From NCBI GenBank assembly GCA_035262825.1, contig DATFSB010000207.1, forward strand, positions 1 through 42,794: a DNA stretch of 42,794 nucleotides, in the 5' to 3' direction. Position numbers and translations under genes: made by a program. This DNA comes from Gemmatimonadales bacterium. Lineage in GTDB: Bacteria; Gemmatimonadota; Gemmatimonadetes; Gemmatimonadales; GWC2-71-9. The notes under the pieces were generated by a model. The model saw nothing but the letters and a program-made list of their open reading frames with translations, had not been told where the DNA came from and did no database searches. Positions within the stretch are counted from its first letter, which is position 1, and each line of letters opens with the position of its first letter. This document shows positions 21,350 through 38,951 of the stretch, in pieces.

Positions 21350-21398
21350 GCGACACTCCCGTTTCTGTTGGGTCCTGCGGGCTCGAGCACGGTGCGGG

Positions 21399-23702
21399 TT
21401 ACGCACCGCCGCCCGCGTCGATCTCACGATGCCGCCGGCGATAGACCATGAAGATGATCGCGCCCAGCACGACGGGTCCTCCGATGGCGTACGGCAGCAC
21501 GCCGCCTGGGTTGAGCCGCGTGTACTTCGTGACGATCAAGTGCATTCCTGGGCTGGTCACCGGATGGCTCGTCGCTTCTGGCCCAGCCGGCGCCGGAATG
21601 CCGACGGTGTACACCATGAAATTGCCGTCGAGAATCGCGTTGACCCGCCAGGCGAGGCTGACCGACTGCCCGGGAGCGACCGGCTCGGTGTACTGCGTGC
21701 GCTGCGGCGACCAGTCTTCCGGGTCGACGACGTCCCCGCTCGCGTTGAGGTTGATGATGTTCATCGCCACGATGAGCGGCGGCGTCGGACTCGACCCGTT
21801 GTTGGTCAGAACGGTGTTGTATTCGATGGGAGTCCCCGCTCGGACCGTCTTGGCGGTGACGTCGATCGACAGCTGGACCTGCGGATCGGCCACCTGTTGC
21901 GCCAGCAGCGGGGCCGCTCCGAGCCCGAGCAGCGCCGCGAGGAGCAGCACGGCTGCAACCCGCTCCCGCGCCGCCTGGAAGAGGCGCGTGCGGCCGGCTT
22001 CCAGTCGCAGCTCGGGACCGGCGTACCAGAACAACAGTGCGAACGCGAAGACGGCGAACACGATGCACGACAACATCCACGACCACGCCCGGTCCAACGT
22101 CCAGTTGTTCACGAGGATGGCGGCGAGGAAGAATTTCGGCGCCGCTAACGGATTCAACCATTGAAAGAGGAGTCCCATGAATCCACCTTGGGCGTGCCCG
22201 GTGAGTTGAGTGGGGAGCAGGAAGAGGACGTACAGACACAGACTGATGAACAGGCTGGTCTTGTTCGAGTTGCACCAGAAACCCACGAACATCGCCATTG
22301 CCGTGAAGCCGAGCGTCAGCACGAGGCCGAGCCCCCCACCCCACAGCACTGCCTGGCTGAACACCTCGTCACCCTGCGACAGCACCCACATGTAGGGAAT
22401 GGCGATCAGCATCGCCACCGGCCCGGGGGACGCCGCCGCGAGGAACTTGCCGAGCACGATCTGGCGGCGACTGGTCGGGGTGAGCAGCAGCCCCTCGAGC
22501 GTGGCGCGCTCCCGTTCCCCGCTCAAGCTGTCGGCGCCGATAATGAGGCTGACGAACACGCTCGCGATCATCGCGGCTTTGGTGAGCTCGAACACCATCT
22601 CCTTCGGCGGGATGAGGCTCAGGCTCGAGTCACGCGCCGTGATGTAGGTGTAGATCCCCAGTACGATGGTGTAAGCGACGGTCAACTGCAGCGCTTTCCC
22701 TCCCACCCAGAGGTCGCTGAGCTCTTTCCTGAACACCACCCACCAGGTTGCGACGCTGCCCGCCGGTACCGGAGTGGCCAGGCGCTCGCCACGCGGTTTC
22801 GGAGCGGGAACGGGCAGTGCTGCTTCCGGCCAGACGGTGGTGGTGGGCGCCCGCCGGGACGGCCGCGGCGCTTTGGCGCTCCAGCGCTTCCAAAGGCGGC
22901 CTAACCGTGTTGCCATCGCAGCGTCGAGTCGCAGACGACGCGCGGCTAAGGCGAACAACACGAGCAGAACGATCGCGGCGAACGAACCCGCCAGGATGGG
23001 GAGATACCACGCCTCCGACACGGGCCGGCCCTGGCCCACCACCTTGCCAAGGAATTGCGCCGCTGCTTCCCATGGGTTCACGAACGTATAAAGCAGCGTG
23101 CGCCGCACCTCGATCACGGTTTGATGGATTCGCGGCCGGGACAACTCGGTCGGCAACAACAGCAGGAGGTAGAGACAGAGACTGACCATCATGCTGGTCT
23201 TGTTCGAGTTGCAGGCCATGCTGACGAGCAGGCCAATGCCGACCAACAGGGCGGCCAGGATCGTACCCAGCACGGTCCCCCACAGCAGCGCCTGCCAGAA
23301 GACCGGATTGCCTTTGGCAAGCACCGCCCAATAGGGGATCGCGATCATGAGCGCGACGGGCCAGGCGGAGAAGGCAGCGAGAAACTTGCCCACCGTGATC
23401 TGCCGCCGGCTCGCCGGGGTCAGGAGCAGCACTTCGAGCGTGGCCCGCTCCCGGTCGCCGGCGAAGGCGTCCGCCGCTGCCACGAGGCAAATGAACGCGG
23501 CGATGGCGATCGAATGCCGCACCATCTCCTGGATCATTTCGGGCACCGGCAGCAGCAAGGTGTCGGCGTTGCTGGCGAGCAGATAGGAGTATCCGCCCAG
23601 CAGCAGGCTGTAGATGAGGATCAAGTACAGTGCCTTGCCGCCGACCCACAGATCCCTGGTCTCGCGCCGGCAGACCACCCACCACGAAGTCGAAATAGCC
23701 AT
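21399..23702 (-). CDS. Fused double ABC-2 permease (two homologous 6-TM modules) + TM + Ig-like periplasmic domain + TM anchor, 767 aa
   Basis: Module 1 is aa 1-262 (WWVVCRRETRDLWVGGKAL, GDRERATLEVLLLTPASRRQI, CNSNKTS). Module 2 is aa 318-572 (WWVVFRKELSDLWVGGKAL, GERERATLEGLLLTPTSRRQI, CNSNKTS). An Ig-like domain spans aa 604-730, followed by TM VLPYAIGGPVVLGAIIFMVY. Confidence 0.85.
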   Translation of the reverse strand: MAISTSWWVVCRRETRDLWVGGKALYLILIYSLLLGGYSYLLASNADTLLLPVPEMIQEMVRHSIAIAAFICLVAAADAFAGDRERATLEVLLLTPASRRQITVGKFLAAFSAWPVALMIAIPYWAVLAKGNPVFWQALLWGTVLGTILAALLVGIGLLVSMACNSNKTSMMVSLCLYLLLLLPTELSRPRIHQTVIEVRRTLLYTFVNPWEAAAQFLGKVVGQGRPVSEAWYLPILAGSFAAIVLLVLFALAARRLRLDAAMATRLGRLWKRWSAKAPRPSRRAPTTTVWPEAALPVPAPKPRGERLATPVPAGSVATWWVVFRKELSDLWVGGKALQLTVAYTIVLGIYTYITARDSSLSLIPPKEMVFELTKAAMIASVFVSLIIGADSLSGERERATLEGLLLTPTSRRQIVLGKFLAAASPGPVAMLIAIPYMWVLSQGDEVFSQAVLWGGGLGLVLTLGFTAMAMFVGFWCNSNKTSLFISLCLYVLFLLPTQLTGHAQGGFMGLLFQWLNPLAAPKFFLAAILVNNWTLDRAWSWMLSCIVFAVFAFALLFWYAGPELRLEAGRTRLFQAARERVAAVLLLAALLGLGAAPLLAQQVADPQVQLSIDVTAKTVRAGTPIEYNTVLTNNGSSPTPPLIVAMNIINLNASGDVVDPEDWSPQRTQYTEPVAPGQSVSLAWRVNAILDGNFMVYTVGIPAPAGPEATSHPVTSPGMHLIVTKYTRLNPGGVLPYAIGGPVVLGAIIFMVYRRRHREIDAGGGA

Positions 23703-23717: not shown

Positions 23718-24551
23718 TCAGCGGGTCGCGGACAACCGAAACGGACTCGTTCCGCCCGATTGCAGACGGAGCCGTGGTCCGGCATACACGAACAGCAGGG
23801 CGACCACGACGATGAGAAACACGACCGGCCCTTGCAGCCAGTCGCCGTAGGTATGCAGGGTCTGGTTATTGACAATGAGCCGTTCCAGCAGCTGGTCGGC
23901 GGCCGCCAGCGGGTTCGAGCGCTGGAAGAACTTCCCGACTAGTCCCTTCTGCGCCCGGCCGGGTAAGAGCGCGGGCAAGAGGAACAGCAGGTACATCGAG
24001 AGACTGATGAACAGGCTGGTGCGATTGGAATTGGACCAGTAGCTGACGAGCATCCCGAGCCCCGTAAATCCGATGACCACCATCGTGCCGACGAAGACGG
24101 CGTACAGGAGCGCGGGCATGAGAATCGGATCGCCTTGGGAAACGACGAGCACGCACGGGAATGTGACGGCCAACGCCGCCGGCCACGGCGACATGCTGGC
24201 GAGGAACTTGCCGACGACGATCTGGGTCCGGCTGGCGGGCGTCAACAACAGCGTTTCCAGCAGCTCCCGGTCGCGCGCGCCGCTCAAGGTGTCGGCGCCG
24301 ATGAGCAGGCCCATGAACACACCGACGTACATGCAGGTCTGCAGGATCGACCAGACCATCTCTTTGGGGGGCGTCAAGTCCATCTGACTCCACCTGACCT
24401 GGAGATAGGTCAGCACTCCGATCACGACCGTGTACACGAGCAGCAGCGTCAGCGCTCGACCGCCGACCCAGAGCTCCTGCAGGTCGCGGCGGCAGACCAC
24501 CCACCAGGCCGCGAGACCCGGGCCGACAGGCGCCGGACGGCCGTCCCTCAC
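23718..24551 (-). CDS. ABC-2 family permease (module B), 277 aa
   Basis: I prefer the GTG at 24551, which forms a GTGA overlap with the upstream stop. Motifs: WWVVCRRDLQELWVGGRAL, GARDRELLETLLLTPASRTQI, SNSNRTS. Confidence 0.8.
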   Translation of the reverse strand: MRDGRPAPVGPGLAAWWVVCRRDLQELWVGGRALTLLLVYTVVIGVLTYLQVRWSQMDLTPPKEMVWSILQTCMYVGVFMGLLIGADTLSGARDRELLETLLLTPASRTQIVVGKFLASMSPWPAALAVTFPCVLVVSQGDPILMPALLYAVFVGTMVVIGFTGLGMLVSYWSNSNRTSLFISLSMYLLFLLPALLPGRAQKGLVGKFFQRSNPLAAADQLLERLIVNNQTLHTYGDWLQGPVVFLIVVVALLFVYAGPRLRLQSGGTSPFRLSATR

Positions 24552-25396
24552 GTGGGTCTCACCCGCAAGCGCCGCATACCAACTTCCAGCTGCAGGGACG
24601 GTCCGGCGTAGACGAAGAGCACGGCGAGCACGACGGCCGGCAGGAGAATCGGGCTGGTCATCCACAGCCACAGCTGTGAGGCCGGGGCGTCCGCCATGAT
24701 GCTCTCATGGAGCAAGCGACTGCTTGCGCCCAGCGGGTTGACCAATTGGAAGAGGTCGGACAGGCCTGTCGATTGGGCGCCGACTGTCGTGGTCGCCAGG
24801 CCCGAGTACTCGGACGGCAGAATCATGAGAAGGTAAAGGCCGATGCTGACGAGCATGCTGGGCTTGTTGGAATTGCTCCAGATGCTGGCGAGCATGCCGA
24901 TGCCGGCGAATGCAGGGGCGAGCAGCGTTCCCACGACCGGCCCCCACAGCAGCGCCGCCCGCAGCACCGGATCGCCCTTGGAGAGCACCACCCAGTACGG
25001 GATGGCGATCATCAACGTCGCCGGCCAGAGGGACAGGGCGGACAGGAATTTTCCCAAGATGATCTGCCGCCGGCTGGTGGGGGTGAGCAGCAGTCCTTCC
25101 AGCGTGGCGCGCTCGCGCTCGCCCGACACAGTGTCGGCACCGACGATCAGGCAGATGAACAATCCCACGAACACCGCAGCCTTGACGATCTCCAGCACCA
25201 CCTCTTTCAACGGCAGCAGCTGCAGCTCCGAGTTGCTCGCGAACAGGTACGCGTAGATCCCGAGCAGCAGGGTATAGATCAGGATCATGACCAGCGCTTT
25301 GCCGCCGACCCAGTGATCCCGCAGCTCCCGCCAGAACACGATGCGCCAGACCGGCGCCGCACGCGGCGCCGGTGAGCGATCGTCGGCTAAACTCAC
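24548..25396 (-). CDS. ABC-2 family permease (module A), 282 aa
   Basis: I prefer the GTG at 25396 (GTGA overlap with the ATPase stop). Motifs: VWRIVFWRELRDHWVGGKAL, GERERATLEGLLLTPTSRRQI, SNSNKPS. The longer track ORF, extending to 25747, would overlap the ATPase by 350 nt. Confidence 0.8.
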   Translation of the reverse strand: MSLADDRSPAPRAAPVWRIVFWRELRDHWVGGKALVMILIYTLLLGIYAYLFASNSELQLLPLKEVVLEIVKAAVFVGLFICLIVGADTVSGERERATLEGLLLTPTSRRQIILGKFLSALSLWPATLMIAIPYWVVLSKGDPVLRAALLWGPVVGTLLAPAFAGIGMLASIWSNSNKPSMLVSIGLYLLMILPSEYSGLATTTVGAQSTGLSDLFQLVNPLGASSRLLHESIMADAPASQLWLWMTSPILLPAVVLAVLFVYAGPSLQLEVGMRRLRVRPT

Positions 25397-26376
25397 TTGA
25401 TGCCCCCCGCCGTGAGCTGCAGGAAGACGTCTTGCAGCCGCCCGCCTTCGGGCTCGAAGCTCAAGACCGGGATCTCCGCGCGCAGCAACGTGTCGAGGAC
25501 GCGATTGTTGACAAACGGATCCGCCGCGGCGGCTTCGTCCAGCTCCACCCGCAACCACCCCGGCATGCCGCTCGCCGGCAGAACCTGGCGAACAGAGGCG
25601 ATGGTGCCGAGCTCCCGCTGGGCGTCTTCCAAGGACTCGGGCGGCACGCGAATCCGCATCATGTTCTGCTCGGTGCGCCCGATGACGTCGGCCACGGTCC
25701 CGGAGGCGACACATTCTCCGGAGCTCATGATGACGACATCGTCGCACACGCTTTCCACCTCCGGCAGGAGATGGCTGCAGAGAATGACACCCGCGCTGCG
25801 CTCTTCGGCGATCTGCTGTACCAGGCCGAGCAGCTCCTGTTGCCCACGCGGGTCGAGGCCGATGGTCGGCTCGTCGAGGAACACGACCACGGGGTCGTTC
25901 ACCAGCGCGCGCGCGATGCCGATCCGTTGCCGCATGCCGTGGCTGTACGTGCTCACGAGCGAGCGGGCGCGCTGCTTGAGTCCCACCTCCTCCAGCAGCT
26001 CCATCCCCACCGCCCGGGCATCGCTCGCGGTGCGTCCGTAGAGCTGACCGAAGTAGGTCAGGTACTCGATACCGGTCATTTGCTTCGGCAACCCGAAGCT
26101 CTCGGGCAGCACCCCGATGCGGCGGCGGATCTGATCGGGATATTCGTGGCTGATCCCGTCGACGGAGAAATGACCGGCGTCGGGCTCCATGATCGTGGTC
26201 AGGATGCGGATCGAGGTCGTCTTCCCCGCGCCGTTCGGTCCGAGGAAGCCCAGCAGCCGGCCCGCTTTGAGGACGAAGGAGAGCCCCCGCAGAGCCATTC
26301 TCGGTCCGTACGATTTCTGCAGACCTTCGGCAACGAGCACTTCGGTCCGCCGCGGAGTCGTTTCACTGTAGGTCAT
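25393..26376 (-). CDS. ABC transporter ATP-binding protein (ABC-2 type) with C-terminal accessory domain, 327 aa
   Basis: Walker A GPNGAGKTT, Q-loop, signature YSHGMRQR, Walker B VVFLDEPTIGLD, H-loop CSH. Confidence 0.9.
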   Translation of the reverse strand: MTYSETTPRRTEVLVAEGLQKSYGPRMALRGLSFVLKAGRLLGFLGPNGAGKTTSIRILTTIMEPDAGHFSVDGISHEYPDQIRRRIGVLPESFGLPKQMTGIEYLTYFGQLYGRTASDARAVGMELLEEVGLKQRARSLVSTYSHGMRQRIGIARALVNDPVVVFLDEPTIGLDPRGQQELLGLVQQIAEERSAGVILCSHLLPEVESVCDDVVIMSSGECVASGTVADVIGRTEQNMMRIRVPPESLEDAQRELGTIASVRQVLPASGMPGWLRVELDEAAAADPFVNNRVLDTLLRAEIPVLSFEPEGGRLQDVFLQLTAGGIK

Positions 26377-26402: not shown

Positions 26403-29400
26403 TCAGGGGTTTGCCAAGCTCGGCGCCGGCCCGCCGGCGCTCCGCGCGATGCCGAACCGCAGGTAGAGGCTGGGTGCCACGAACAGATTCAACAGCGTCG
26501 ACGTGATCAGACCGCCGAGGATGACGATCGCCATCGGATACTCGATTTCGTGCCCGGGCTTATCGCCGGCGATCAGCAGCGGCACGAGCGCGAGCCCGGT
26601 CGCCAAGGCCGTCATGAGAATCGGCGACAGCCGCTCGCGGGCGCCGCGCAACACCAGCGCCGGGCCGAGCGCTTCGCCTTCGAAACGCTCCAGGTGCTGG
26701 TAATGGCTCATCAGCATGATCTGGTTGCGCGCGGCGATGCCGAAGATCGTGAGGAAGCCGACCATCGACCCCAGCGAAATCACGTCGCCCGTGAAGTACA
26801 CGGCCAGCACGCCGCCGACGAGCGCGGAGGGCAGGGTCAGGAAGCCGAGCACCGCGAGCCGGGTGTTCTCGAACGAGGCGAGGAGGATCAGGAACACGCC
26901 GATCCCCGCCGCGATCGCGAAACTCAGCAGCCGGGTCTGGGCCTCGTCGCGCTCGGCGTACTCGCCCAGCACGACGGCGTGGTAGCCGAGCGGGAACTTG
27001 ATGTGCTCGAGGCGGTCGTCGACCTCATCCATCACGCCGGCCAGGTCGCTCCCGGTCACTTCGGCGCCGACGTCGATGCGGCGTGAATCGTTTTCACGGT
27101 AGATCACGCTCTGCGCCGGTACGATGCGGACGGTAGCGACGTCCCCCAGCCGCACCTGCCCGCCCTTGGGCGTGTCGATCGGCAGATTGCGGACGCTGGT
27201 GAGGCTCTGGCGGGTGGCGGGGGTGCTCCAGACGTTGACGTCGTACGCCTTGCCGTCCCGGAAAATGTCGCCCACCTCTTCCCCCGCGAGCAGCGTGCCC
27301 GACGCCCGCCGCACGTCGCCCGGTTTGAGCCCGTAGCGCTGTGCCGCGGCGAGATCGACTTCGACCTGAATCTGCGGGACCTGCGACTGCAGCTGCACGT
27401 TCAGGTCGGAGAGGCCGGCGATCCCCGCGAGCGAATCGCGCACCTCCTCCGCCTTTTCGTGGATCACGTCGAGGTTGGGTCCGTAGATCCGCACCACGAA
27501 CGTCTGACTCGAGCCCGACAGCACCTCGTCGATCCGCTCGTTGAGGTAGGTCTCGACGTTGTGGAACAGTCCGGGATAGCCGTAGACGACTCCCTCGATA
27601 CGGGAGATCGTCTCGTCGTAGTCCGCCGCCGGATCGACGCTGATCCAATTCTCCCCGAAGTTGACGCCGTTGAGCTCGTCGGCCAGCAGCGCCTGCCCGA
27701 TGTGCGAGCCGAAGTTGCGGACGCCGGGAATGGCGCGCAGCTCGCGGCTCAATCGCGTGACGATGCGCCGTTCCTCGTTCACGGAGCTGCCGGGCTTCGT
27801 GATCCAGTGGATCAGGAAATCGCGCTCCTTGAAATGGGGGAACAGCGACTCGCCGAGCAGCGGGACGATGGCGGCCCCCACCACCATGACGACGGCGGTG
27901 GCCAGGAACGCGTGCCGCGGACGCGCGACGATGCGCCGCAACGCCCGCTCGTAGATCCCCTGCAGCCACCGCACCAGAGGCTGGCGCTGGTGCTCAATGG
28001 GAGTGCGGCGCAGCAGCAGGTAGCACATCGCGGGCGTGACGGTGAGCGCGACGACCATGGATGCCAGCACCGCGAGCCCGTACGCGATCGCCATCGGCTG
28101 GAAGAAGGCGCCGGAGAGGCCGCCCATGAAGATGACGGGGATCACCACGACGGCGTCGATCAGCGTGGCGTGCACGATCGCCTGGCGCACCTCGAGCGAC
28201 GCCTCGAGGATGATGCGGGCGGTCGACAGGCTGCGCCCTTCCTGACGTGCCAGGCGCAGGCGCCGGGTGATGTTCTCGACGTCGATGATCGCGTCATCGA
28301 CCACGACGCCGATCGCGATCACGAAACCGGCCAACATCATGGTGTTGATGGTCGCCCCGCTGAGGTACAGCACCAGCGCGCCGGCCGTCAGCGACAGCGG
28401 GATGGCGACCATGCTGATCAGCGCAGTGCGCCACTGGAACAGGAAGGCGATGATCACCAGCATCACGAGGATGCAGCCGAGAATCAGGGCGTGCGACAGG
28501 TTGTCGAGCGCGACCTGAATGAAGTCCGCGGGGCGGAAAATCGTCGGATCGAGGTCGACGCCCTTCAACCCGGGGCGCAGCTCGTCGAGCGCCGCTTCCA
28601 CGCCGTGCGTGACGTCCAAGGTGTTGGCCCACGGGAACTTCTCGACGACCAGCATCAGTCCCGGACCGTCGTTGATGACGGCGTCGCCGAACAGCGGCCA
28701 CGTGTCCCATACGACGTCCGCCACATCGCTGAGTCGCAACGGAGTGCCGTCGCTCTTGCGCCGGTCCTGGATGGGCACCTGCCCGAGGTCCTCCGGCGAG
28801 GAAATGGCGAGAACGTGGCGGATGCCGAGCCGCTGGTTGGGCGTCTGGATGAAGCCGCCGGTGCCGATCACCGCTCCTTTGGAGAACTGCAGGATGCCCA
28901 CGTCGAGCGCGTCGGCGGTGACTTCCATGACCTGATCGAGCGAGACGCGCCGCTCCCGCAGCCGGTCGGGATCGACCTGCACCTGCGGCATCTTGATGCG
29001 CTCCCCCCAGATCGCCACGTTGGCGACCCCCGGCACGCCCAGCAGGCGCGCGCGGATCGTCCAATAGGAGATCATCGAGAGGTCCATCAGCGAGATGTCC
29101 TTCGACGACACGCCGATCTTCATCACGCGACCGGTCGAGGAGACCGGAGGGATGATGACCGGCGGCGCCGCCCAGGTCGGCAGCGTCGTGAGGACGTTGG
29201 TGAGACGCTCCTGCACGAGCTGCCGCGCCCGCACGACGTCGGTCCCAGGCTTGAAGAGCAGCTCGATCGACGACAGATCGGGGATCGACTTGGAGCGCAT
29301 CAGATCGAGCCGATCGAGACCGTTGAAGGCCTGCTCCAGCGGCACGGTGACCAGCGCCTCGACCTCCTCGGCGGACAGCCCGAGGCTCGGCGTCTGGACC

Positions 29401-29546
29401 TCAACCCGGGGCGGCGCAAACTCGGGGAACGCGTCCACTGGAGTGTTGGGGAGCTGGGCGATGCCATACACCATCATCGCGACGGCCCCGGCCAGCACGA
29501 TGAACCGGAACCGCAAGCTCGCGCCGACGATCGCTCGCATCATCAT
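26403..29546 (-). CDS. CzcA/CusA-like RND efflux permease (RND-1), 1047 aa
   Basis: PVDAFPEFAPPRVEVQTPSLGLSAEEVE N-terminus, TM4 AIGVVVDDAIIDVENITRRL and a 12-TM, two-large-loop layout. Confidence 0.9.
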   Translation of the reverse strand: MMMRAIVGASLRFRFIVLAGAVAMMVYGIAQLPNTPVDAFPEFAPPRVEVQTPSLGLSAEEVEALVTVPLEQAFNGLDRLDLMRSKSIPDLSSIELLFKPGTDVVRARQLVQERLTNVLTTLPTWAAPPVIIPPVSSTGRVMKIGVSSKDISLMDLSMISYWTIRARLLGVPGVANVAIWGERIKMPQVQVDPDRLRERRVSLDQVMEVTADALDVGILQFSKGAVIGTGGFIQTPNQRLGIRHVLAISSPEDLGQVPIQDRRKSDGTPLRLSDVADVVWDTWPLFGDAVINDGPGLMLVVEKFPWANTLDVTHGVEAALDELRPGLKGVDLDPTIFRPADFIQVALDNLSHALILGCILVMLVIIAFLFQWRTALISMVAIPLSLTAGALVLYLSGATINTMMLAGFVIAIGVVVDDAIIDVENITRRLRLARQEGRSLSTARIILEASLEVRQAIVHATLIDAVVVIPVIFMGGLSGAFFQPMAIAYGLAVLASMVVALTVTPAMCYLLLRRTPIEHQRQPLVRWLQGIYERALRRIVARPRHAFLATAVVMVVGAAIVPLLGESLFPHFKERDFLIHWITKPGSSVNEERRIVTRLSRELRAIPGVRNFGSHIGQALLADELNGVNFGENWISVDPAADYDETISRIEGVVYGYPGLFHNVETYLNERIDEVLSGSSQTFVVRIYGPNLDVIHEKAEEVRDSLAGIAGLSDLNVQLQSQVPQIQVEVDLAAAQRYGLKPGDVRRASGTLLAGEEVGDIFRDGKAYDVNVWSTPATRQSLTSVRNLPIDTPKGGQVRLGDVATVRIVPAQSVIYRENDSRRIDVGAEVTGSDLAGVMDEVDDRLEHIKFPLGYHAVVLGEYAERDEAQTRLLSFAIAAGIGVFLILLASFENTRLAVLGFLTLPSALVGGVLAVYFTGDVISLGSMVGFLTIFGIAARNQIMLMSHYQHLERFEGEALGPALVLRGARERLSPILMTALATGLALVPLLIAGDKPGHEIEYPMAIVILGGLITSTLLNLFVAPSLYLRFGIARSAGGPAPSLANP

Positions 29547-29989
29547 TCTTCTTCGAACTCCGATTCACTGCCGAACAGCTCGGCGGCCCCGACGGTCACG
29601 ACCGTTTCGCCGAGACCGGGACCGGTCGACAGCACCGCGAGATCGCCTGTGACCGATTCCACCGTGACCCGCGTGCGGATGTAGGTGAACGGCTCCGGGT
29701 TGGTGTACGCCCACGCCTGACCCTCCGCGTCATAGAGGATCGCGGCGTACGGGATCACCTTGCGCATCAGGCCGTTGACCGTGGACCGCCGCACACCGAC
29801 GGTTTGAATGTCGAGACGCCGGGCGGCTTCCTCGGTGAGGATGAGGCGGTTGACATCGTCGCCGGCGATCGGCTCGACCTTCACCGCCTTCGCCGTGCTC
29901 TCTTCGCTCGCCTGATTGCGACCGCACGCTACCAGCGGCAGCCAGGCGACGATCAGCGCCGCTCGCCACGCGGGTATCCGCGAACTCAT
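29543..29989 (-). CDS. Small lipoprotein resembling only the membrane-proximal part of an RND periplasmic adaptor, 148 aa
   Basis: ATG at 29989 is preceded by AGGAGG. Lipobox LPLVAC. LILTEEAARRLDIQTVGV is an MFP N-terminal strand. VIPYAAILYDAEGQAWAYT..FTYIRTRVTVESVTGDLAVLSTGPGLGETVVTVGAAELFGSE is an MFP C-terminal pattern. ATGA overlap with RND-1. Confidence 0.75.
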   Translation of the reverse strand: MSSRIPAWRAALIVAWLPLVACGRNQASEESTAKAVKVEPIAGDDVNRLILTEEAARRLDIQTVGVRRSTVNGLMRKVIPYAAILYDAEGQAWAYTNPEPFTYIRTRVTVESVTGDLAVLSTGPGLGETVVTVGAAELFGSESEFEEE

Positions 29990-30002
29990 GCGTTCCTCCT
30001 GA

Positions 30003-33000
30003 TCACGATTTAGTGACGCCCAACGCGGCAACGTCCGCCAGGCCGGCGGGTAATTCCACGTCGCCCCGTTGCGCGGCTGTGACTTGCAGTACCAGGTACA
30101 TCGAGGGCAGCACGAACAGGGAGATCAGCGTCGCGGTCACGAGGCCGCCCAGCACCACGACCACCGCGCCACGCACGACTTCGAGCCCGGGGCGGTCGCC
30201 CGCCAACAGCGTGGGAAGGAGCGCCAGGGCAGTGACTACCGCGGTCATGAGGATCGGCGCCGCGCGCTCGACCGCCCCGCGCATCACGAGCCCCGCGCCG
30301 AACGGCTCGCGACCCTCAGCTTCCAGCTGGTGATAGCGCGAGAAGAGCTGCAGGGTGTTGCGGATGGTGAAGCCGAGCACGATGAGCAATCCGACGAGCG
30401 ATCCGATGGAGATCGTGTCTCCGCGCGCGGCCGCCGCCGCGAGTCCGCCCACCAGCGCGGCCGCTGCGGTCGCGAGGCCGATCCCGGCGAGTCGCCAGCT
30501 CCCGATCGCCGCCTGCAACAGCAGCAGCATTCCAATCATGGCCGCCACCGCCAGCAGCAATGCCCGTTGATGGGCTGTCTCGCGCTCGGCGAACCCGCCG
30601 AGCACCTCCGCGTGATGCTCCAACGGCATTGGAACGGTCTGCAGGCGGGCCTCGATGTCACCAGCGACGGTGCCGAGATCGCGCCCGCGCACTCCGACGA
30701 TCACGTCGAGGTAGCGCTTCACGGCCTCGTGCCGAATTGCGCGGGCACTCGACACGATGCGGACTTGCGCCACGTCTCCCAGCCGGACGCTGCCGCCGCC
30801 AGGCGTATCGATCATCAGGTCGCGCACACTGTTGAGGCTGTGGCGCGTTGCCGGCTCCCCCCACACTACCACGTCGAAGACCTTTTGCTCTTCGAACAGA
30901 TTGCCGACCTGCAGTCCGGAAAACATCGTGGCCGCGGAACGCCGCACGTCACCGGGCTTGATGCCGTGACGCTGTGCCGCAGCGAGATCGACCTCGACCT
31001 CCAGCACCGGTTCTTGCGCCGGCTGATCCAGCCGCGCGCTGGTCACGCCTCCGACCTCGCTGACCGCTTTCGCCACAGCACCCGCCGCGGTGCGCAGCAC
31101 CGCATCGGCGTCGCCGTAGACGCGGACAACGATGGAGTCACGGGCCTGCGCGTTCAGCGGCTCCGTGCGCTCGCTGAGGTACGTCTCCACTCGCGGACGC
31201 AGGCCGGGGTAGCCATTGACCACCGTGCGGACGGCGGCGACGGTGCGATCGTAATCCGCCGTCGAATCGACGCTGACCCAAAGCTCGGCGGAATTGACGT
31301 TGACGACCTGGTCGCCGAAGATCGCCCGGCCCAGGTGTGCACCGACATTGGAGACGCCGCGGATGGACCGCAGCTCGAGGCTGACGCGTCCGGAGATGCG
31401 GCTCATCTCGGGCTGCGACGTGCCCGGGGCGCTGGTGAGATGGACCAGCAGGTCCCGCTCGGCGAACTTGGGCAACGACCCGCCGGAGCGCCCCACGAGC
31501 GGCAGCAGGGCGAATCCGACGATCAGAACCGGCGCGACAATCGCCACCGGACGCCACGGCCGCTGCAGCGTTCGCGCCAGAGCTCCTTCGTACCACGCCT
31601 GCAGCCGTCGGACGAACGGCACCTCGCGCGACGGCGCGGGCGCGCGCGGCAACAGCACGAGACCGAGGGCAGGCGTGACCGTCAGGGCGACCACCATCGA
31701 CGCCAGGACGGCGAGGACATACGAGCCCCCGAACGGGCGCCAGAACGCCGCGGGCACGCCGCCGAAGACGAGCAGCGGCAGCAGGGACAGCAGCAGGATC
31801 AACGTGGCGAACACCGCCGCACCGCGCAGCTCGGCGACGGCGGCGACGACGGCAGCCGCGGGCGATTCGCCGCGACCGTCGCGGAAGCGGCGCCGCATGG
31901 CGTCGACGTGAAGGATCGCGTCGTCGACGATCACGCCGAGTGCCATGAGCATCCCGCCAAGCACCACGACGTTGACCGTCGCACCGCGCAGATAGAGGAC
32001 CCAGGCGCCGGCAATGAACGAGGTGGCGATGGCGCTGATCGCAATCAGCGTCGCACGCCAGTCGGAGAAACCGATGGCGATCGCAATGGCCGCAAGCGCG
32101 AATCCGATGAGCGCGACCCAGCCGAGGTTGTGCAACGCCGATTCGATGAAGCCGGCGGGCCGGAAGATCGACGAATTCACCTCGAGGCCGGTCATACCGG
32201 GGCGCAGCTCGGCGAGGGCCGCTTCGACGCCGCGCGTCACATTGTGCAGATTCGCACCGGGGAAGCGGTCGACGACCAGGAGCAGGTTGGCGCTGCCGTT
32301 CGTCAGCGCGTCGCCGATGAGCGGCTGGTGTCCTTCGACTACGTCGGCCACGTCGCCCAGGCGCACGCCGGTGGCTTCGATCGGCACCTGCGCCAGACCT
32401 TCCGGCGACACGATCGGCAGGATGTGGCGGATCCCGAGCCGCTGATTGGCGTTGTCGATGAAGCCGCCGGTGCCTGGCGTCGAAGCCTCAACGAAGCTGA
32501 GCGACGAGACCCACAGCGCGTTGCCGGTGGTTTCGAGCACCTGCAGCAACGACACGCGGCGATCGTGGAGCCGTTTCGGATCGACCAGCACCTGCAGCTG
32601 GCGGTCGCGCTGCCCCCAGATGGCCACGTTCGCGACGCCTTGGACGCCGAGCAGGCGCGGAGCGATGGTCCAGCGCGCCAGGACCGACATCTGGATCGGG
32701 GACAACGTCTTCGAGGACAACCCGATCAACATGACCCGGCTCGTGGACGACATCGGCTGCAGCATTGTGGGCGGCCGGGACACGTGCGGCAGGGCAAACG
32801 CCTGGGTGAGCCGCTCCGACACCATCTGACGGGCTCGCATCAGATCCGTCCCAGGCCGGAAAGTCAGGACGATCGACGACAAGCCCGGGACCGATTCCGA
32901 ACGCAGCGACTCGAGCCACGGTACGCCATTGAGCAGGTCCTGCTCCAGCCCGAGCGTTACCAGCTGCTCCACCTCCTGGGCAGAGAGTCCCAGGGCTTCG

Positions 33001-33152
33001 GTCTGTATCTCGACGCGCGGCGGCGAGAATTCGGGCAGCACGTCGACCGGCAGCTCGCGCAGCTGCCGCACGCCGACGACGAGCAGCGCCACGGCGATGG
33101 CCACCACCGTCACGCGATACTTGGTGCTCCAGTTCACGAGCGAACCCATCAT
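30003..33152 (-). CDS. CzcA/CusA-like RND efflux permease (RND-2, paralog of RND-1), 1049 aa
   Basis: Internal ATG at 33152 (MMGSLVNWSTKYRV...) overlaps the upstream stop (ATGA). Motifs: PVDVLPEFSPPRVEIQTEALGLSAQEVE and TM4 ALGVIVDDAILHVDAMRRRF. The upstream 93 aa of the track ORF is Arg-rich junk. Confidence 0.9.
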   Translation of the reverse strand: MMGSLVNWSTKYRVTVVAIAVALLVVGVRQLRELPVDVLPEFSPPRVEIQTEALGLSAQEVEQLVTLGLEQDLLNGVPWLESLRSESVPGLSSIVLTFRPGTDLMRARQMVSERLTQAFALPHVSRPPTMLQPMSSTSRVMLIGLSSKTLSPIQMSVLARWTIAPRLLGVQGVANVAIWGQRDRQLQVLVDPKRLHDRRVSLLQVLETTGNALWVSSLSFVEASTPGTGGFIDNANQRLGIRHILPIVSPEGLAQVPIEATGVRLGDVADVVEGHQPLIGDALTNGSANLLLVVDRFPGANLHNVTRGVEAALAELRPGMTGLEVNSSIFRPAGFIESALHNLGWVALIGFALAAIAIAIGFSDWRATLIAISAIATSFIAGAWVLYLRGATVNVVVLGGMLMALGVIVDDAILHVDAMRRRFRDGRGESPAAAVVAAVAELRGAAVFATLILLLSLLPLLVFGGVPAAFWRPFGGSYVLAVLASMVVALTVTPALGLVLLPRAPAPSREVPFVRRLQAWYEGALARTLQRPWRPVAIVAPVLIVGFALLPLVGRSGGSLPKFAERDLLVHLTSAPGTSQPEMSRISGRVSLELRSIRGVSNVGAHLGRAIFGDQVVNVNSAELWVSVDSTADYDRTVAAVRTVVNGYPGLRPRVETYLSERTEPLNAQARDSIVVRVYGDADAVLRTAAGAVAKAVSEVGGVTSARLDQPAQEPVLEVEVDLAAAQRHGIKPGDVRRSAATMFSGLQVGNLFEEQKVFDVVVWGEPATRHSLNSVRDLMIDTPGGGSVRLGDVAQVRIVSSARAIRHEAVKRYLDVIVGVRGRDLGTVAGDIEARLQTVPMPLEHHAEVLGGFAERETAHQRALLLAVAAMIGMLLLLQAAIGSWRLAGIGLATAAAALVGGLAAAAARGDTISIGSLVGLLIVLGFTIRNTLQLFSRYHQLEAEGREPFGAGLVMRGAVERAAPILMTAVVTALALLPTLLAGDRPGLEVVRGAVVVVLGGLVTATLISLFVLPSMYLVLQVTAAQRGDVELPAGLADVAALGVTKS

Positions 33153-34042
33153 GGGGATGTCATCCCTTCCACTGGCGGCGTGTGCGCGTAAACGCTGCTG
33201 CTGCGTTGATAGCCACTCTGGTCCAGCTTTTTCGCTTCCATTCGCGCAGCGGCGAGCGCCTGCGCATCGAGCCGCTCGACCCGCGCGAGCTCCAGGACTT
33301 CCTGCGTTTTTTCGCCCGCGCCGCGCCACCCGACGCGGACATTGCCGGTGCCGCGGGCGTAGTACTTGAGCTGCGTCGCGTCCGGCTCGCCGGAGCTCGT
33401 CTCGGCGATCACCAGCGCGCTGTCGTAGCACGCGGCGGGGACACAGGTGCGCTGCCCCATCTGGTCGACTTGCCCACGATCAGTCCACTCGACCGCCGGT
33501 CCCCATCCTTCGGCATAGCTGGGCGTCCCGAGGCGCGGAGCGGCGGGCATCATGATTCCCGCGCTCGCCCCCTCGAGGCCGTGGATCCAGGGCCGAGCGG
33601 CGACGAATTTTCCGTCCTCGTACTCCTCCGGGTATTCCCCGAGGTACCACACCGTGCCCGTGGAGTCCTGCGCGTAGAAGGCCAGCTCCGCCTCCACCAG
33701 CTCGCCGTCGTTGAAGTCGGTGTCCCAGGTGACGGCGGTGCGCACGCCGCCGATGACCTTGGTGAGGTCGGTGACCGTGACGACGATGCGATGCGGGACT
33801 TTCTTGCCGTCGTCCTCGACCGCCGTGCCTTCGTAGACGAACCGCGTCCCCGGTGCGAGCGGCATCCAGGGGTTGTTGATGGCGCTGGGTCGGAGGAAGC
33901 GGCCGGCATCGAAGGCCGGCAGATCGGGCGTCTGCGGCGGTGCTGCCTGCGCCGTGCGATCGGGGGCCCGCCCGCAGGCGAGCGTCAGCGCCGTAGCGAC
34001 GGCGAGGGCGGCTGCTGCCGCGATCCTACAGGCGGTAGGCAT
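33149..34042 (-). CDS. Lipoprotein of unknown function, 297 aa
   Basis: ATG at 34042. Lipobox ALTLAC. NPWMPLAPGTRFVYEG...VTDLTKVIGGVRTAVTWD...AFYAQDSTGTVWYLGEYPEE. No MFP motifs were recognised. Confidence 0.7.
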   Translation of the reverse strand: MPTACRIAAAAALAVATALTLACGRAPDRTAQAAPPQTPDLPAFDAGRFLRPSAINNPWMPLAPGTRFVYEGTAVEDDGKKVPHRIVVTVTDLTKVIGGVRTAVTWDTDFNDGELVEAELAFYAQDSTGTVWYLGEYPEEYEDGKFVAARPWIHGLEGASAGIMMPAAPRLGTPSYAEGWGPAVEWTDRGQVDQMGQRTCVPAACYDSALVIAETSSGEPDATQLKYYARGTGNVRVGWRGAGEKTQEVLELARVERLDAQALAAARMEAKKLDQSGYQRSSSVYAHTPPVEGMTSP

Positions 34043-36923
34043 ACTGTAGCTTGACCAGCAGCTGGTTGGAGTCGAACGCGAAGCGGTCATTGAGATTACG
34101 CAGCATGTTGTGATTGAAGACGACGAACAGGTCGCCGAGGGGATTGAAGGTCCAGCGGAGCCGCGTGTTGGTGCCGAGGTTGCGGCTTTCGTTGTCGTAT
34201 TGCAGGAAGCTCGACACTTGCAAGTCGGCCGAGACGTTCACCTGCACCCGGCCGCTGTAGAGCCGCTGCACGAAGTCTCCAACCGGCAGCCGCGCGCTGT
34301 TGCGCTCCCAGCCCAGCTCCGCGGTGAGGAAAGCCGACGGCTTCATGCGCACCGTCAGCGCGAGACTGTGGAGGTGACCGCCGTAGAACGAGCCGGTCGA
34401 CCACGTCGCCTCGCCGTTGAAACGGCGTTTGGCCGCGAGCGCTCCCTGCACGGTGTAGCGGGTCCAGCGGTACGAACCCGCGGGCACGACGACCGACGTG
34501 GTATCGCTGCTGAACAGCTCGAAGTCTTCGGTCGGGCGATCGCCCTGCGGCTCGATGTCGAACTCGAAGCGGTCGCCGCTTTCCAGCTGCCAGTCGAGCG
34601 GCTTGAAGGACAGGATGTAGCTCTCCCACCGCCCATGCAGGTCGCTGATCACCGCCGGGTTGAACTCGAAGAACATCTGGCGCACCAGCGGCCACGCCGG
34701 GCGCGGCCGGAACCCGGCCTCGACCTGCCACAGCTGCACGCCCGTGCGGGGGACGAAGGACAGCGACGGGTTGAAGCGCTCGCCGATGCGCTTGTAGCGC
34801 AGCGAGACGTCCCACAAGTCATTGGGATAATCGATCATCCCGCCGAAGGCGTTGTCGCTCCCGATGTCATCGCGGTGGTTGTGCAGCCCCCACACACCCA
34901 TGATGAGATTCTTGTCGCCCTTGAATTCGGACGTCTGGAAGGTGAAGTCGGCCCCGGTCATCCAGCTGCCGGCGATGCCGAGGGGATCGCCGAAGGTGGC
35001 GATCAGTCCCGCCGACGATTCCGACAGCACGTTCTGCTTGACGCGAAACGCGCCCATCGTGGCGTCGGTCGGCAGCGAATCGACGCCGCGCGTGCGCACG
35101 GCCAGGGCGCCGACATTGGTGTTGCCCATACGACCGTTGAGCTTGCCGCCGACGGTGATGGGGATCTGGAGTTGATCCTCAGCCTCGCCCTGCAGTCCGA
35201 TGCGGCGGCTGTGAAACGCGATCAGATCCTCGTCGTTGCCGACGCCGAACTCGAAGATGTCCGCGCCTTCGAGGAAGAACGTCCGCTTCTCGGGGAACAG
35301 CAGGTCGAACCGGGTCAGATTGGTCTGCCGCGCGTCCACCTCGGTCTCGCCGAAGTCGGTGTTCACGGTGAGCGAGGCGATCATGTTGGGACCCAGCTTC
35401 TTCGTCGCATCGAGACTGCCCTGGGTCTTGTAGACCCGCTCGGCGCCGGGGGCGGGCCGGTTGGCGTTGCCGACGATGCCGGGGCGGATGCTCAGCCCGA
35501 GACCGAGGTTGAACGCCGGCAGATCGGTGAGGTGCCCCGAATGGCTCGTCTGGTAGATCTCGTAGTCGCGGTTGGCCCCGGCCCAGCGACTGACCTCCAA
35601 CAGGCGCTGGACACGGCGCTGCACGTTGAAGCCCCACCCGGTCAGGTCCTGCTTGAAGCTCAGCGTCTTGATCGGGATGCGGATCTCGACGCTCCAGCCG
35701 CGCGCATCGCGCGCCGTGGCGGCTTCCCAGATACCGTCCCAATCGGTGTTGACGTCCTCGCCGTAGGCGGAGACGAGCCCATCGAACCGCGCGCCGTTGG
35801 GATTGACGGCGAAGACGTAACCGGTGCGCCCGTCCTCGAACGGATCGAGCACCAGCATGACGTGATCCTCGAGCTCGAGATCGAAGTCGCGCGTCTTCGC
35901 GAAGGCGACGATACCGGCGGGGTTCGAATCGCGGCACAGGATGCCGAAGATCAGCTCGCTGGGATTCGCGAGCACCTTCACGATCGTTTGGCCGGCCGGC
36001 CTGGCGCCCTCGGTCGGCTCGATGGTGACGAGGTCGACGATCGAATCCGCGCTGCTCCACGCCGGCTCGTCGAGGCGGCCGTCCAGCGTCACTTCGCTCT
36101 CGAACGTACTGGCGCGCAGGGTGGTCAGCGCCGCGGCGGCGGGCGCTCCCTCCGCCGCGCCGACGTCGAACGTGGCGCTCGTCACGGGACCGAGCCCCGG
36201 TGCCTTGACGGTGAGCGAGTACGTCCCCGGCTTGTCGATACGGAGATCGCCGAACGCGGCGACGCCGGCCACGGCGGTGACGGTGGTGGTGCCCGTCAGC
36301 TCGGCCTCCTCGTCGCCCGTTCCATCGGTGATCTCGACGGTCACGTTCGCGGTGAAGCTCTCGAGCGTCTGGCCGGTGGCGTCCCGCACTGTGATAGCGA
36401 CGGTCGGCTGAATGGGTGCGCCCGCCGCGGTGTGGCTCGGCTGCACGGTGAACTCGGCGCGCGCTGCTCCAGCGCCCGACCCTCCACCCGGTGCAGCCGT
36501 CACGACGGAGGTCGCGACGGCGACCGGCGCCGCCGCGGCAGCCGGGGCCGTCACGGCGAACGGCGCGCTCGTGACCTCGCCCACGCCCTCGACGGTAGCC
36601 GTGAGCTTGTACTCGGCTGCGGCGCTGTCGATGGAGAGCGCACTGAAGATTGCGACGCCGGCGACGGCGGTGACCTTCGTCGTGCCTGAAAGCTCCGCGT
36701 CTTCATTCCCAGAACCGTCGGAGATCTCCAGGGTAACGGCGCGCGCGAACGTCGTCACGGTCTGACCGGCCGCGTCGACCACACTCACCTGTACCGCCGG
36801 TGTGATCGTCGCGCCCGCAACCGTAGCGCTCGGTTGGACGGTGAAGACGAGATGCAGCGAGTCGAGCGGGACGGCGGGGCGTGAGACGAGCACGGTGCTG
36901 AACAGCAGGATTGTGGAGAGCAT
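34026..36923 (-). CDS. Outer-membrane DUF5916/CBM9-like barrel protein with two N-terminal Ig-like repeats, 965 aa
   Basis: ATG at 36923 is preceded by GGAGG. The CBM9-like segment is LDGRLDEPAWSSADSI...DHVMLVLDPFEDGRTGYVFAVNPNGARFDG...GWSVEIRIPIKTL. The DUF5916-like segment is TVNTDFGETEVDARQTNLTRFDLLFPEKRTFFLEG. The C-terminus is an aromatic-rich barrel end, ...LQYAYRL. Confidence 0.75.
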   Translation of the reverse strand: MLSTILLFSTVLVSRPAVPLDSLHLVFTVQPSATVAGATITPAVQVSVVDAAGQTVTTFARAVTLEISDGSGNEDAELSGTTKVTAVAGVAIFSALSIDSAAAEYKLTATVEGVGEVTSAPFAVTAPAAAAAPVAVATSVVTAAPGGGSGAGAARAEFTVQPSHTAAGAPIQPTVAITVRDATGQTLESFTANVTVEITDGTGDEEAELTGTTTVTAVAGVAAFGDLRIDKPGTYSLTVKAPGLGPVTSATFDVGAAEGAPAAAALTTLRASTFESEVTLDGRLDEPAWSSADSIVDLVTIEPTEGARPAGQTIVKVLANPSELIFGILCRDSNPAGIVAFAKTRDFDLELEDHVMLVLDPFEDGRTGYVFAVNPNGARFDGLVSAYGEDVNTDWDGIWEAATARDARGWSVEIRIPIKTLSFKQDLTGWGFNVQRRVQRLLEVSRWAGANRDYEIYQTSHSGHLTDLPAFNLGLGLSIRPGIVGNANRPAPGAERVYKTQGSLDATKKLGPNMIASLTVNTDFGETEVDARQTNLTRFDLLFPEKRTFFLEGADIFEFGVGNDEDLIAFHSRRIGLQGEAEDQLQIPITVGGKLNGRMGNTNVGALAVRTRGVDSLPTDATMGAFRVKQNVLSESSAGLIATFGDPLGIAGSWMTGADFTFQTSEFKGDKNLIMGVWGLHNHRDDIGSDNAFGGMIDYPNDLWDVSLRYKRIGERFNPSLSFVPRTGVQLWQVEAGFRPRPAWPLVRQMFFEFNPAVISDLHGRWESYILSFKPLDWQLESGDRFEFDIEPQGDRPTEDFELFSSDTTSVVVPAGSYRWTRYTVQGALAAKRRFNGEATWSTGSFYGGHLHSLALTVRMKPSAFLTAELGWERNSARLPVGDFVQRLYSGRVQVNVSADLQVSSFLQYDNESRNLGTNTRLRWTFNPLGDLFVVFNHNMLRNLNDRFAFDSNQLLVKLQYAYRL
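36162..36854 (-). repeat. Internal tandem duplication encoding two ~100-aa Ig-like domains
   Basis: LVFTVQPSATVAGATITPAVQVSVVDAAGQTVTTFARAVTLEISDGSGNEDAELSGTTKVTAVAGVAIFSALSID aligns with EFTVQPSHTAAGAPIQPTVAITVRDATGQTLESFTANVTVEITDGTGDEEAELTGTTTVTAVAGVAAFGDLRID. Confidence 0.7.
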
Positions 36924-38949: not shown

Positions 38950-38951
38950 CA

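Follow-up and report, generated by a model that had tools for sequence, protein, structure and literature searches.

A membrane-proximal-domain-only relative of RND adaptors encoded between two paralogous RND permeases in a Gemmatimonadales bacterium

The adaptors of resistance-nodulation-division (RND) pumps are membrane fusion proteins (MFPs), and they are defined by bridging. AcrA/MexA and TriA/TriB are four-domain proteins that form a hexameric tunnel to TolC or OprM, and the domains of MFPs are nested, with the membrane-proximal (MP) domain outside the β-barrel, the β-barrel outside the lipoyl domain, and the lipoyl domain outside the α-helical hairpin. The MP domain of AcrA, MexA, CusB, and MacA contacts the RND porter domain and is required for transporter activation. 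In a 42,794-nucleotide stretch of DNA from a Gemmatimonadales bacterium (contig DATFSB010000207.1 of assembly GCA_035262825.1; the whole stretch is referred to as the window), we analyzed a gene at positions 29543-29989 of the minus strand, which encodes a lipoprotein of 148 amino acids (the mini-adaptor) between two RND permease genes. The protein belongs to the MFP superfamily by homology and is very probably an MFP derivative reduced to the MP domain and serving as an accessory subunit of an RND transporter. It shares with AcrA/MexA and TriA/TriB the lipoprotein anchor, the position of the gene beside an RND gene, and an alignable C-terminal half of the MP domain, but it consists of the pump-contacting domain only. 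Such an MP-only family splits the task of “talking to the pump” from that of “reaching the outer membrane”.

The mini-adaptor belongs to a lineage with kinship to three heavy-metal adaptors, CusB, SilB, and ZneB. The MP domain of these proteins (“domain 1” of CusB) gave the best fold matches, and the C-terminal β-roll with the pattern G..G..VV..G was common to both sides. The N-terminal motif LILTEEAARRLDIQTVGV of the mini-adaptor resembled VKIDPTQTQNLGVKTATV of CusB, and the partner RND was likewise closest to ZneA and CusA. An engineered SilB construct comprising the N-terminus and the MP domain (5a4g) demonstrates that a module of this kind is able to fold by itself. Unlike the three metal adaptors, the mini-adaptor had no β-barrel, lipoyl domain, or hairpin, and it differed further by additional strands at the N-terminus (residues 36-51) and an acidic helix at the C-terminus. 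Its cassette contained neither CusC-like nor CusF-like genes. No N-terminal Met or His metal site was noticed in the mini-adaptor, although no dedicated analysis of such sites was made.

Natural domain loss in an RND adaptor has a precedent in BesA of Borrelia burgdorferi, an MFP without hairpin (PMC4446572, PMC8277102). No adaptor named in these two reviews is more reduced than BesA, which lacks the hairpin alone. Two longer relatives of the mini-adaptor described below, P0150 and P0153, share the architecture of lipoyl, β-barrel, and MP domains with BesA. However, BesA keeps the lipoyl domain and the barrel and works with the outer membrane factor (OMF) BesC, whereas the 148-residue protein has lost both and has no linked OMF. 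As of 2015, YknX was the only Gram-positive periplasmic adaptor protein with an MP domain, and Gram-positive adaptors were found to retain hairpins unexpectedly (PMC4446572). YknX is an MFP homologue of a monoderm with a prominent hairpin and an ATP-binding cassette (ABC) transporter as partner, whereas the family described here has the MP domain only and AcrB-type RND partners. Adaptors of major facilitator superfamily transporters and of type I ABC transporters have no MP domain, which is a natural variation opposite to that of the MP-only family.

Two paralogous RND genes side by side with one adaptor gene are known from MdtABC, the permease of which is the heterotrimer MdtB2C. MdtA is full-length and is encoded upstream of both permeases, whereas the mini-adaptor gene lies between RNDs closer to the heavy metal efflux (HME) type. 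Small membrane-anchored accessory proteins of RNDs also exist, namely MmpS of the mycobacterial MmpL transporters, AcrZ, and YajC, and of these MmpS and AcrZ are not derived from MFPs. The likeness to them is an analogy only, that of a small anchored protein encoded beside an RND, also in bacteria without a classical outer membrane; no MmpS entry was among the 50 listed fold matches of the mini-adaptor, and no sequence or fold relationship was detected. A 2024 study, the RND phylogeny of which left out Actinobacteria and Chloroflexi, notes descriptions of some HAE-1 transporters with heterotrimeric RND permeases that combine two different subunits (PMC10872679). A 2024 paper called an AcrB orthologue in a monoderm unexpected and asked for the whereabouts of the other components (PMC11170357). 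A full-text literature search for MP-only, truncated, or minimal adaptors, for monoderm RNDs, and for RNDs combined with LolA-like proteins found neither the family nor the cassette described, within the limits that the searchable literature sets to such proof. The cassette offers a concrete answer on the function and the partners of AcrB-like RNDs in bacteria without an outer membrane.

The mini-adaptor gene runs from an ATG at 29989-29987 to a TGA at 29545-29543. A first-pass annotation, made from the letters of the window, had placed a 148-residue lipoprotein at exactly these coordinates without naming the strand, and both peptide segments it had quoted as MFP-like were found in the translated protein. 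The N-terminus, MSSRIPAWRAALIVAWLPLVAC followed by GRNQ, is a standard lipoprotein signal (residues 1-22, positions 29924-29989) with the lipobox LVAC, as the annotation had read it, and Cys22, the predicted lipidated residue, was invariant in an alignment of 42 family members (A1). The gene of the upstream permease, RND-2, ends with a TGA at 30005-30003, and the 13 nt from there to the ATG of the mini-adaptor contain the Shine-Dalgarno (SD) sequence GGAGGA (29994-29999, minus strand). On the other side, the ATG of RND-1 (29546-29544) and the stop codon of the mini-adaptor overlap as ATGA; this overlap and the 13-nt spacing were both read from the sequence as previously described. An alternative longer open reading frame (ORF) with a TTG start reaches 30031, but this start is not used, because GGAGGA precedes the ATG and the homologues almost all have 147-150 residues. 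The G+C content at the third codon positions (GC3) of the frame was 0.80. No contig on record encoded the exact sequence of the mini-adaptor, and the window proteins were 95-99% identical to those of the Gemmatimonadales metagenome-assembled genome (MAG) L001.

The AlphaFold2 (AF2) model, for which the family alignment served as input, had a mean pLDDT of 82 and values of about 94-97 over residues 50-140. In this model, the N-terminal part of the MP domain (residues 36-72, positions 29774-29884) consisted of a β-hairpin, the short helix TEEAARRL, and strands leading to DIQTVGVRRSTV, and it ended at the junction where the other domains were deleted. The C-terminal β-roll of the MP domain (residues 73-134, positions 29588-29773), which extended from RKVIPYAAILYD to VLSTGPGLGETVVTVG, was the part matched by the TriA/TriB profile comparison and by Foldseek. 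It was followed by a C-terminal helix (residues 135-146 in the model) and the acidic tail AAELFGSESEFEEE (positions 29546-29587), all on the minus strand. There was no long helical segment in the model, and 148 residues leave none for a β-barrel.

The relationship to MFPs was found by sequence profile and by fold. When the family profile was compared with all PDB sequences, the TriA-TriB fused MFP 6vej was the sole match below 1e-3 (E=8.4e-4), and both of its MP C-terminal halves, that of TriA and that of TriB, aligned to profile positions 69-139. The second-ranked entry was the Bacteroides MFP 4l8j, which was also found by a single-sequence phmmer search against the PDB at E=0.79, a suggestive value only. 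A Foldseek search of the PDB with the AF2 model, a check that the first-pass annotation had proposed, showed MFP chains without exception at ranks 1-34 and no unrelated fold among them. The top matches were CusB in the CusBA complex (3ne5_C, 5.2e-4) and the nuclear magnetic resonance structure of the SilB N-terminus plus MP construct (5a4g, 5.8e-4), and further matches included TMexC, AcrA, MexA, BesA (4kku and 4kkt), ZneB (3lnn), MacA, and TriAB, with local superpositions of 58-74 residues at 1.5-2.8 Å. The parallel to the CusB C-terminus drawn in the first-pass annotation concerned the segments that hhalign also paired, FTYIRTRVTVESVTGDLAVLSTGPGLGETVVTVG with GRFVPKRVAVFQASQGVTALRSGLAEGEKVVSSG, but this comparison alone was not significant. 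When single CusB and AcrA sequences were compared with the family profile, hhalign aligned the correct segments at a probability of about 1%, which we did not count as evidence.

Longer relatives of the mini-adaptor were obtained when the family profile was run exhaustively against 1.84 billion cluster representatives, and they indicated how the domains were lost. Relatives of 235-336 residues matched the family profile in two pieces, one N-terminal and one C-terminal, at E values of about 1e-40 to 1e-54. Two of them, P0150 (336 residues) and P0153 (328 residues), matched the profile at about 1e-46 and also passed the Pfam gathering thresholds for HlyD_3 (47.6 bits, cut-off 22.2) and HlyD_D23 (45.8 bits, cut-off 30). 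Their insert was a lipoyl plus β-barrel module with the lipoyl signature ITAPxSGT and a sub-threshold match to Biotin_lipoyl_2. In a joint alignment, the 148-residue protein was colinear with P0150 and P0153 except for one clean in-frame gap between V72 and N73. A single internal deletion thus removed the nested β-barrel, lipoyl, and α-hairpin domains from the mini-adaptor lineage, and the earlier statement that these three domains are missing was borne out by this single gap against HlyD-positive relatives. Of the insert, P0137, P0139, and P0124 (255-281 residues) kept just the β-barrel part, and P0133 (178 residues) kept a short linker at the junction. The hairpin also appeared to be absent from P0150 and P0153, the longest relatives examined, the insert of which had no room for it. 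Given the nesting of MFP domains, this series of lengths is what stepwise loss from the inside out would be expected to leave. The locus of P0150 had the order ACR_tran, ABC, ABC-2, P0150, ACR_tran, which is the same cassette and makes positional orthologues of the long and the short forms. Of the top 150 representatives, 100 had at most 200 residues, 42 had 201-300, five had 301-400, and three were longer. A further architectural variant was P0128 (220 residues), in which the C-terminal MP half was tandemly duplicated with two IPYSAL...GPPxGT repeats.

Compared with the features of the MFP or periplasmic adaptor protein family, which is classified as TC 8.A.1 and as the HlyD clan of Pfam, the mini-adaptor has the membrane anchor, an MP domain built from two segments, and the linkage to the gene of an inner-membrane transporter, and it lacks the β-barrel, the lipoyl domain, the α-helical hairpin, and recognition by curated hidden Markov models (HMMs) such as HlyD_* and RND_mfp. 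Since the protein has only one of the four MFP domains and no curated HMM recognizes it, it was not filed as a canonical member of the family. The first-pass description of an RND adaptor remnant with only the MP domain was nevertheless supported by the TriA/TriB profile match, the Foldseek results, and the colinear longer relatives.

The family is large and conserved. At E≤1e-3, 669 homologues were found in a database clustered at 90% identity, almost all of 147-150 residues and none with a Pfam domain, and the representatives of clusters at 50% identity numbered 2,387 at E≤1e-3, of which 1,855 reached E≤1e-10. As no Pfam or NCBIfam model covers them, more than 2,000 protein clusters are annotated as “hypothetical”. 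Alignment A1 contained 22 invariant columns, and the invariant features included the lipobox Cys, the RLDIQT motif, PYAAxLYD, W93, R105, and the C-terminal VVTVGAAELYGSE. Within RLDIQT, R58, L59, D60, and Q62 were invariant, and I61 and T63 were at least 90% conserved. The tail residues E144, F145, E146, E147, and E148 were nearly invariant in A1, and the tail may serve for docking or for the binding of cations. Across 270 family sequences, the tail was EFEEE in 109 and FE[VI]GH, GVGK, or GGGGH in the remainder, and these endings varied between phyla. The Cys lipobox pattern was matched in 77 of the 85 copies from other genomes; two of the eight non-matching copies had a lipobox missed by the pattern and six had an uncleaved hydrophobic anchor, as is found in MFPs.

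Relatives were found in at least 309 species by a scan of one genome per species that was seeded by two peptide patterns, and the count is thus a lower bound. Taxonomy and synteny were counted in the 80 best loci. Actinomycetota contributed 27 of these loci, including the isolate Kribbella alba JCM 14306 (L063), Chloroflexota 19, Gemmatimonadota 18, Planctomycetota five, Bacteroidota and Proteobacteria three each, Eisenbacteria two, and other phyla three. More than half of the best loci thus came from phyla that are generally held to be monoderm (Actinomycetota and Chloroflexota). The cultured host Kribbella alba makes experimental work on the system feasible.

The mini-adaptor gene was linked to RND genes almost without exception. 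In the window, RND-1 (26403-29546, minus strand, 1047 residues, ACR_tran E=2.8e-220) follows it and RND-2 (30003-33152, minus strand, ACR_tran E=2.6e-166) precedes it, and the two permeases, both of full length, were 50% identical. RND-2 has 1049 residues when counted from MMGSLVNW; the ORF list prolongs it to 33431, but the ACR_tran match starts only at residue 100 of that ORF. A survey of co-occurrence, which had been proposed with the first description, showed an RND gene less than 400 nt downstream in 77 of 80 testable copies, and two of the three exceptions showed just fragmented RND matches downstream, apparently owing to frameshifts or misassembly. A second, upstream RND was present in 67 of 69 loci, adjacent to the mini-adaptor in 54 and separated from it by an ABC ATPase/ABC-2 module in 13. 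The upstream and downstream RNDs formed two paralogous lineages in a fixed order, as assigned by a nearest-neighbor test together with mean identities: the nearest neighbor was of the same positional class in 129 of 130 cases, and identities averaged 0.63 among the downstream RNDs, 0.55 among the upstream RNDs, and 0.50 when the two sets were compared. The downstream lineage, that of RND-1, was conserved across phyla. Classing the upstream RNDs by tblastn bit score proved misleading, and a two-cluster cut of an unweighted pair-group (UPGMA) tree isolated just three outliers; both were discarded.

The partners of a conventional tripartite pump were searched for by phmmer in every six-frame ORF of the 83 loci and the window, with CusB, AcrA, TolC, and CusC as single-sequence queries of limited sensitivity. 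No OMF was found with the TolC and CusC queries across the 83 loci and the window, and no canonical MFP was found in the cassette, the MFP-like ORFs being located at three unrelated flanks (L008, L075, and weakly L047). Pfam annotation of the gene contexts likewise showed neither a canonical MFP nor a TolC-like gene in the cassette. The idea that one of these partners is hidden nearby was rejected on this search, within the limited sensitivity of its queries.

Several observations on individual loci were made alongside these counts. In L044, a Vicinamibacterales MAG, the adaptor at 10001-10435 had no RND match within 10 kb and followed an ABC ATPase and ABC-2 permease module, and this adaptor may pair with the ABC-2 transporter. 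Two adaptor copies per locus were seen in L031, L054, L061, L077, L079, and L083, as repeated adaptor-RND units or whole triads; the order was RND-adaptor-RND-adaptor-RND in L077 and L079, and L083 had two RND-adaptor-RND triads. RND-1 was 76-79% identical to Chloroflexota copies versus about 60% to those of other Gemmatimonadales and Gemmatimonadota (loci compared were L006, L007, L012, L017, L043, and L051, and L011, L020, and L027-L029). Since RND-1 is closer to Chloroflexota than to its own phylum, this suggests that several cassette subtypes exist and that the whole module was transferred horizontally across phyla.

Directly upstream of RND-2 lies the gene of a second lipoprotein, lip313 (33149-34045, minus strand, 297 or 298 residues, lipobox LTLAC), the stop codon of which overlaps the RND-2 start as ATGA. 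The family of lip313 had more than 3,700 homologues, including the related proteins P0271-P0504; no Pfam or NCBIfam model matched lip313, and no match to LolA or YmcC was found at the sequence level. An alignment of 32 members (A2) with about 65-95% identity had about 90 invariant columns, which included two Cys and many Asp, Glu, His, and Trp residues. Relatives of lip313 were often tandem duplications of about 575 residues, as seen in 109 of the 115 best matches to P0169. The AF2 model of lip313 (pLDDT 82.6, pTM 0.80) gave Foldseek matches to the YmcC-like BF2203 (3fzx, 3.9e-6), 4fvs (1.1e-5), LolA3 (9tp6, 4.4e-4), and DUF1849 (6ntr, 9e-4), with TM-scores of 0.26-0.50; the proteins matched included BDI_3050, more LolA-family proteins, nitrobindins, ependymin-related proteins, and VtrC. 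The predicted fold is thus provisionally LolA/YmcC-like. Such folds are open β-barrels and are typically carriers of hydrophobic ligands.

The fusions between the two lipoproteins pointed to a common function. In at least six clusters at 90% identity (P0169, P0393, P0394, P0422, P0424, and P0425; 416-418 residues), the lip313 domain was nested inside the adaptor at profile position 72-77, which is exactly the deletion junction of the barrel and lipoyl domains. One nested fusion was located between two ACR_tran genes. Other types of fusion were P0162, with the lip313 domain at the C-terminus, and P0163, with an insert of lip313 plus barrel. These fusions are strong evidence that lip313 is functionally linked to the mini-adaptor, and the nested ones provide a testable model of cargo hand-off. 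In 39 of 80 loci, homologues of lip313 were encoded no more than 10 kb from the mini-adaptor gene, and they either preceded RND-2 or followed RND-1.

Taken with the role of the MP domain in known pumps, these results suggest that the mini-adaptor would be a dedicated accessory subunit of a cassette with two paralogous AcrB/CzcA-type RND permeases. Its lipid-anchored MP domain is predicted to dock on the periplasmic porter domain of one or both RNDs near the membrane, as in CusBA and AcrAB, and the docked protein would support assembly and/or activation of the pump instead of bridging to an outer-membrane duct. It would be unable to build the hairpin/lipoyl tunnel toward such a duct, which fits both the occurrence in monoderms and the absence of OMF genes, and would thus not reach an outer-membrane channel. 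Because such a role involves no bridging, the same protein could serve both the monoderm Actinomycetota and Chloroflexota and the diderm Gemmatimonadota. The nested fusions, in which its domain sits at the deletion junction, suggest that lip313 replaces the lost upper domains in structure and function, and it probably takes over cargo from the pump or passes cargo on to the pump. We consider this account as a whole, with an anchored MP adaptor docking on an RND pump and cooperating with a LolA-like lip313, to be probable, with less confidence than the assignment itself, by which the mini-adaptor is an RND accessory subunit derived from an MFP and reduced to the MP domain.

Several points weigh against this account. 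Pfam and NCBIfam scans of the window protein gave no match, and no MFP model of Pfam or NCBIfam matched any of the 42 family members tested even at E≤10, a threshold at which the Pfam scan gave scattered noise only. The direct sequence evidence is modest (E about 1e-3), and the assignment depends on profile, fold, and transitive arguments. The Foldseek TM-scores normalized to the query were 0.35-0.44, low values that arise because about 60-75 of the 148 residues superpose locally. Only about half of the loci had a lip313 gene inside the ±10 kb range, and most of the genomes are fragmentary, so canonical MFP or OMF genes may lie elsewhere in them. The clues to the substrate conflict, as the kinship with ZneA and CusA and the acidic tail point to cations, whereas the LolA-like partner points to hydrophobic cargo. 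The contact between the mini-adaptor and an RND is a prediction, and the two permeases may form either a heterotrimer or two separate pumps.

A more elaborate scheme, which we regard as possible but doubtful, treats the cassette as an export machine with four core parts, the two RNDs, the MP-only adaptor, and the LolA/YmcC-like lipoprotein, often joined by an ABC-2 transporter. The two permeases would possibly form a hetero-oligomer, and the tunnel-forming domains of the adaptor would have been exchanged in evolution for a soluble-carrier domain. Cargo would pass from the RND to the tethered carrier by a transfer similar to those of the Lol, Lpt, and Mla systems, and not into a TolC duct. If true, such a hand-off would account for AcrB-type RND pumps in monoderm Actinomycetota and Chloroflexota.

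The metal kinship of the partners raises another explanation, in which the mini-adaptor would be mainly a periplasmic chaperone of metal cations with an acidic or His-ending tail that feeds an HME-like RND, the MP-like fold being a scaffold. CusF and the CusB N-terminus feed metal to CusA in this way. The solved structures closest to RND-1 were ZneA (6e-106) and then CusA, its best NCBIfam model was CusA/CzcA (TIGR00914), and the best fold matches of the mini-adaptor were the metal adaptors CusB, SilB, and ZneB. The EFEEE tail, nearly invariant in the subfamily of the window, and the FE[VI]GH or GGGGH endings of other subfamilies are in line with this explanation, as are the many invariant Asp, Glu, and His residues of lip313. 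However, the two RNDs scored 556 and 397 bits with TIGR00914 against a cut-off of 701. At M573, the one position of the CusA Met triad that was checked, neither RND had a Met, and transmembrane segment 4 (AIGVVVDDAIIDVEN) carried the AcrB-like DD pair in both, with an Arg at the position of AcrB K940. Judged from these sequence features, the partner RNDs fall short of membership in the HME-RND group of CusA and CzcA. In addition, the tail is not conserved across the family, and the LolA-like fold of lip313 is typical of carriers of hydrophobic ligands. A chaperone function would also be compatible with docking and would merely add to it. We consider metal delivery as the main function unlikely.

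Another explanation concerns the diderm hosts, in which the mini-adaptor and lip313 could form a trans-envelope link to an outer-membrane protein other than TolC. The window offers two candidates for this protein. The first gene of the operon (34026-37145, minus strand, start codon uncertain) encodes a DUF5916 protein of about 1000 residues with two N-terminal Ig-like repeats, a Pfam DUF5916 match at 1.9e-9, and a weak CarboxypepD_reg match, and this protein is likely an outer-membrane component or barrel. It lies directly upstream of lip313, and homologues were found in 14 of 80 loci, almost all of them diderm versions of the cassette and mainly of Gemmatimonadota, with the same position in L081. 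The second candidate is a putative porin of the Porin_5 family (19954-21045, minus strand), the gene of which closes the operon at its apparent end. The nested fusions, in which lip313 fills the position of the upper domains of the adaptor, are also in line with such a link. However, most loci, and nearly all of those from Actinomycetota and Chloroflexota, have no DUF5916 gene, and the core therefore works without it; moreover, a hairpin tunnel that spans the periplasm is long in comparison with a single LolA-like domain. A trans-envelope link is thus quite unlikely, and docking of the mini-adaptor on the RND pump remains the preferred explanation.

It is highly improbable that the mini-adaptor is an unrelated small β-rich lipoprotein resembling an MP domain by convergence or chance. 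Small β-rolls are common, and the direct E values were about 1e-3 to 1e-4, but the colinear relatives matching the profile at about 1e-46 carry HlyD_D23 and HlyD_3 exactly at the nested position of the MFP topology, the top 34 fold matches were all MFPs, and the RND linkage is obligate. Finally, the gene could be seen as a decaying, functionless remnant of an MFP gene, a pseudogene formed by frameshift or deletion, since three of four MFP domains are missing and no curated HMM matches. This suggestion can be dismissed on conservation and gene packing. There are hundreds of homologues of 147-150 residues (the 148-residue form being that of the family majority), which share 22 invariant columns and the lipobox. 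The domains were deleted in frame, and the spaces of 13 and -4 nt on either side of the gene are too short to contain them. The gene is tightly packed with an SD sequence, translational coupling, and no neighboring MFP-like frame, the GC3 is coding-like, and the AF2 fold is confident. These observations refute the frameshifted fragment that the first-pass annotation had raised as a counter-explanation.

The remaining genes of the operon are also encoded on the minus strand, and the order of transcription is DUF5916, lip313, RND-2, mini-adaptor, RND-1, ABC ATPase, three ABC-2 permeases, PepSY, and Porin_5. The ABC ATPase (25393-26376, Pfam ABC_tran) is followed by the three ABC-2 permease genes (24548-25747, 23718-24671, and 21399-23702, Pfam ABC2_membrane_2), and a PepSY-domain protein (21035-21427) follows this permease array. 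In other loci, the ABC/ABC-2 module was located downstream of RND-1 or between RND-2 and the mini-adaptor, and a close homologue of the ATPase was present in 21 of 80 loci. Divergent from the operon, a two-component system on the plus strand (37225-39590) comprises, by Pfam, a HisKA_3 kinase with a GAF domain and a LuxR-type response regulator, and a HisKA_3 kinase also adjoined the cassette in L002, L003, L045, and L072. An ORF of 726 residues on the plus strand (16292-18472), unrelated to the mini-adaptor, combined an AhpC/TSA-Redoxin thioredoxin-like domain with a calcineurin-like metallophosphoesterase domain.

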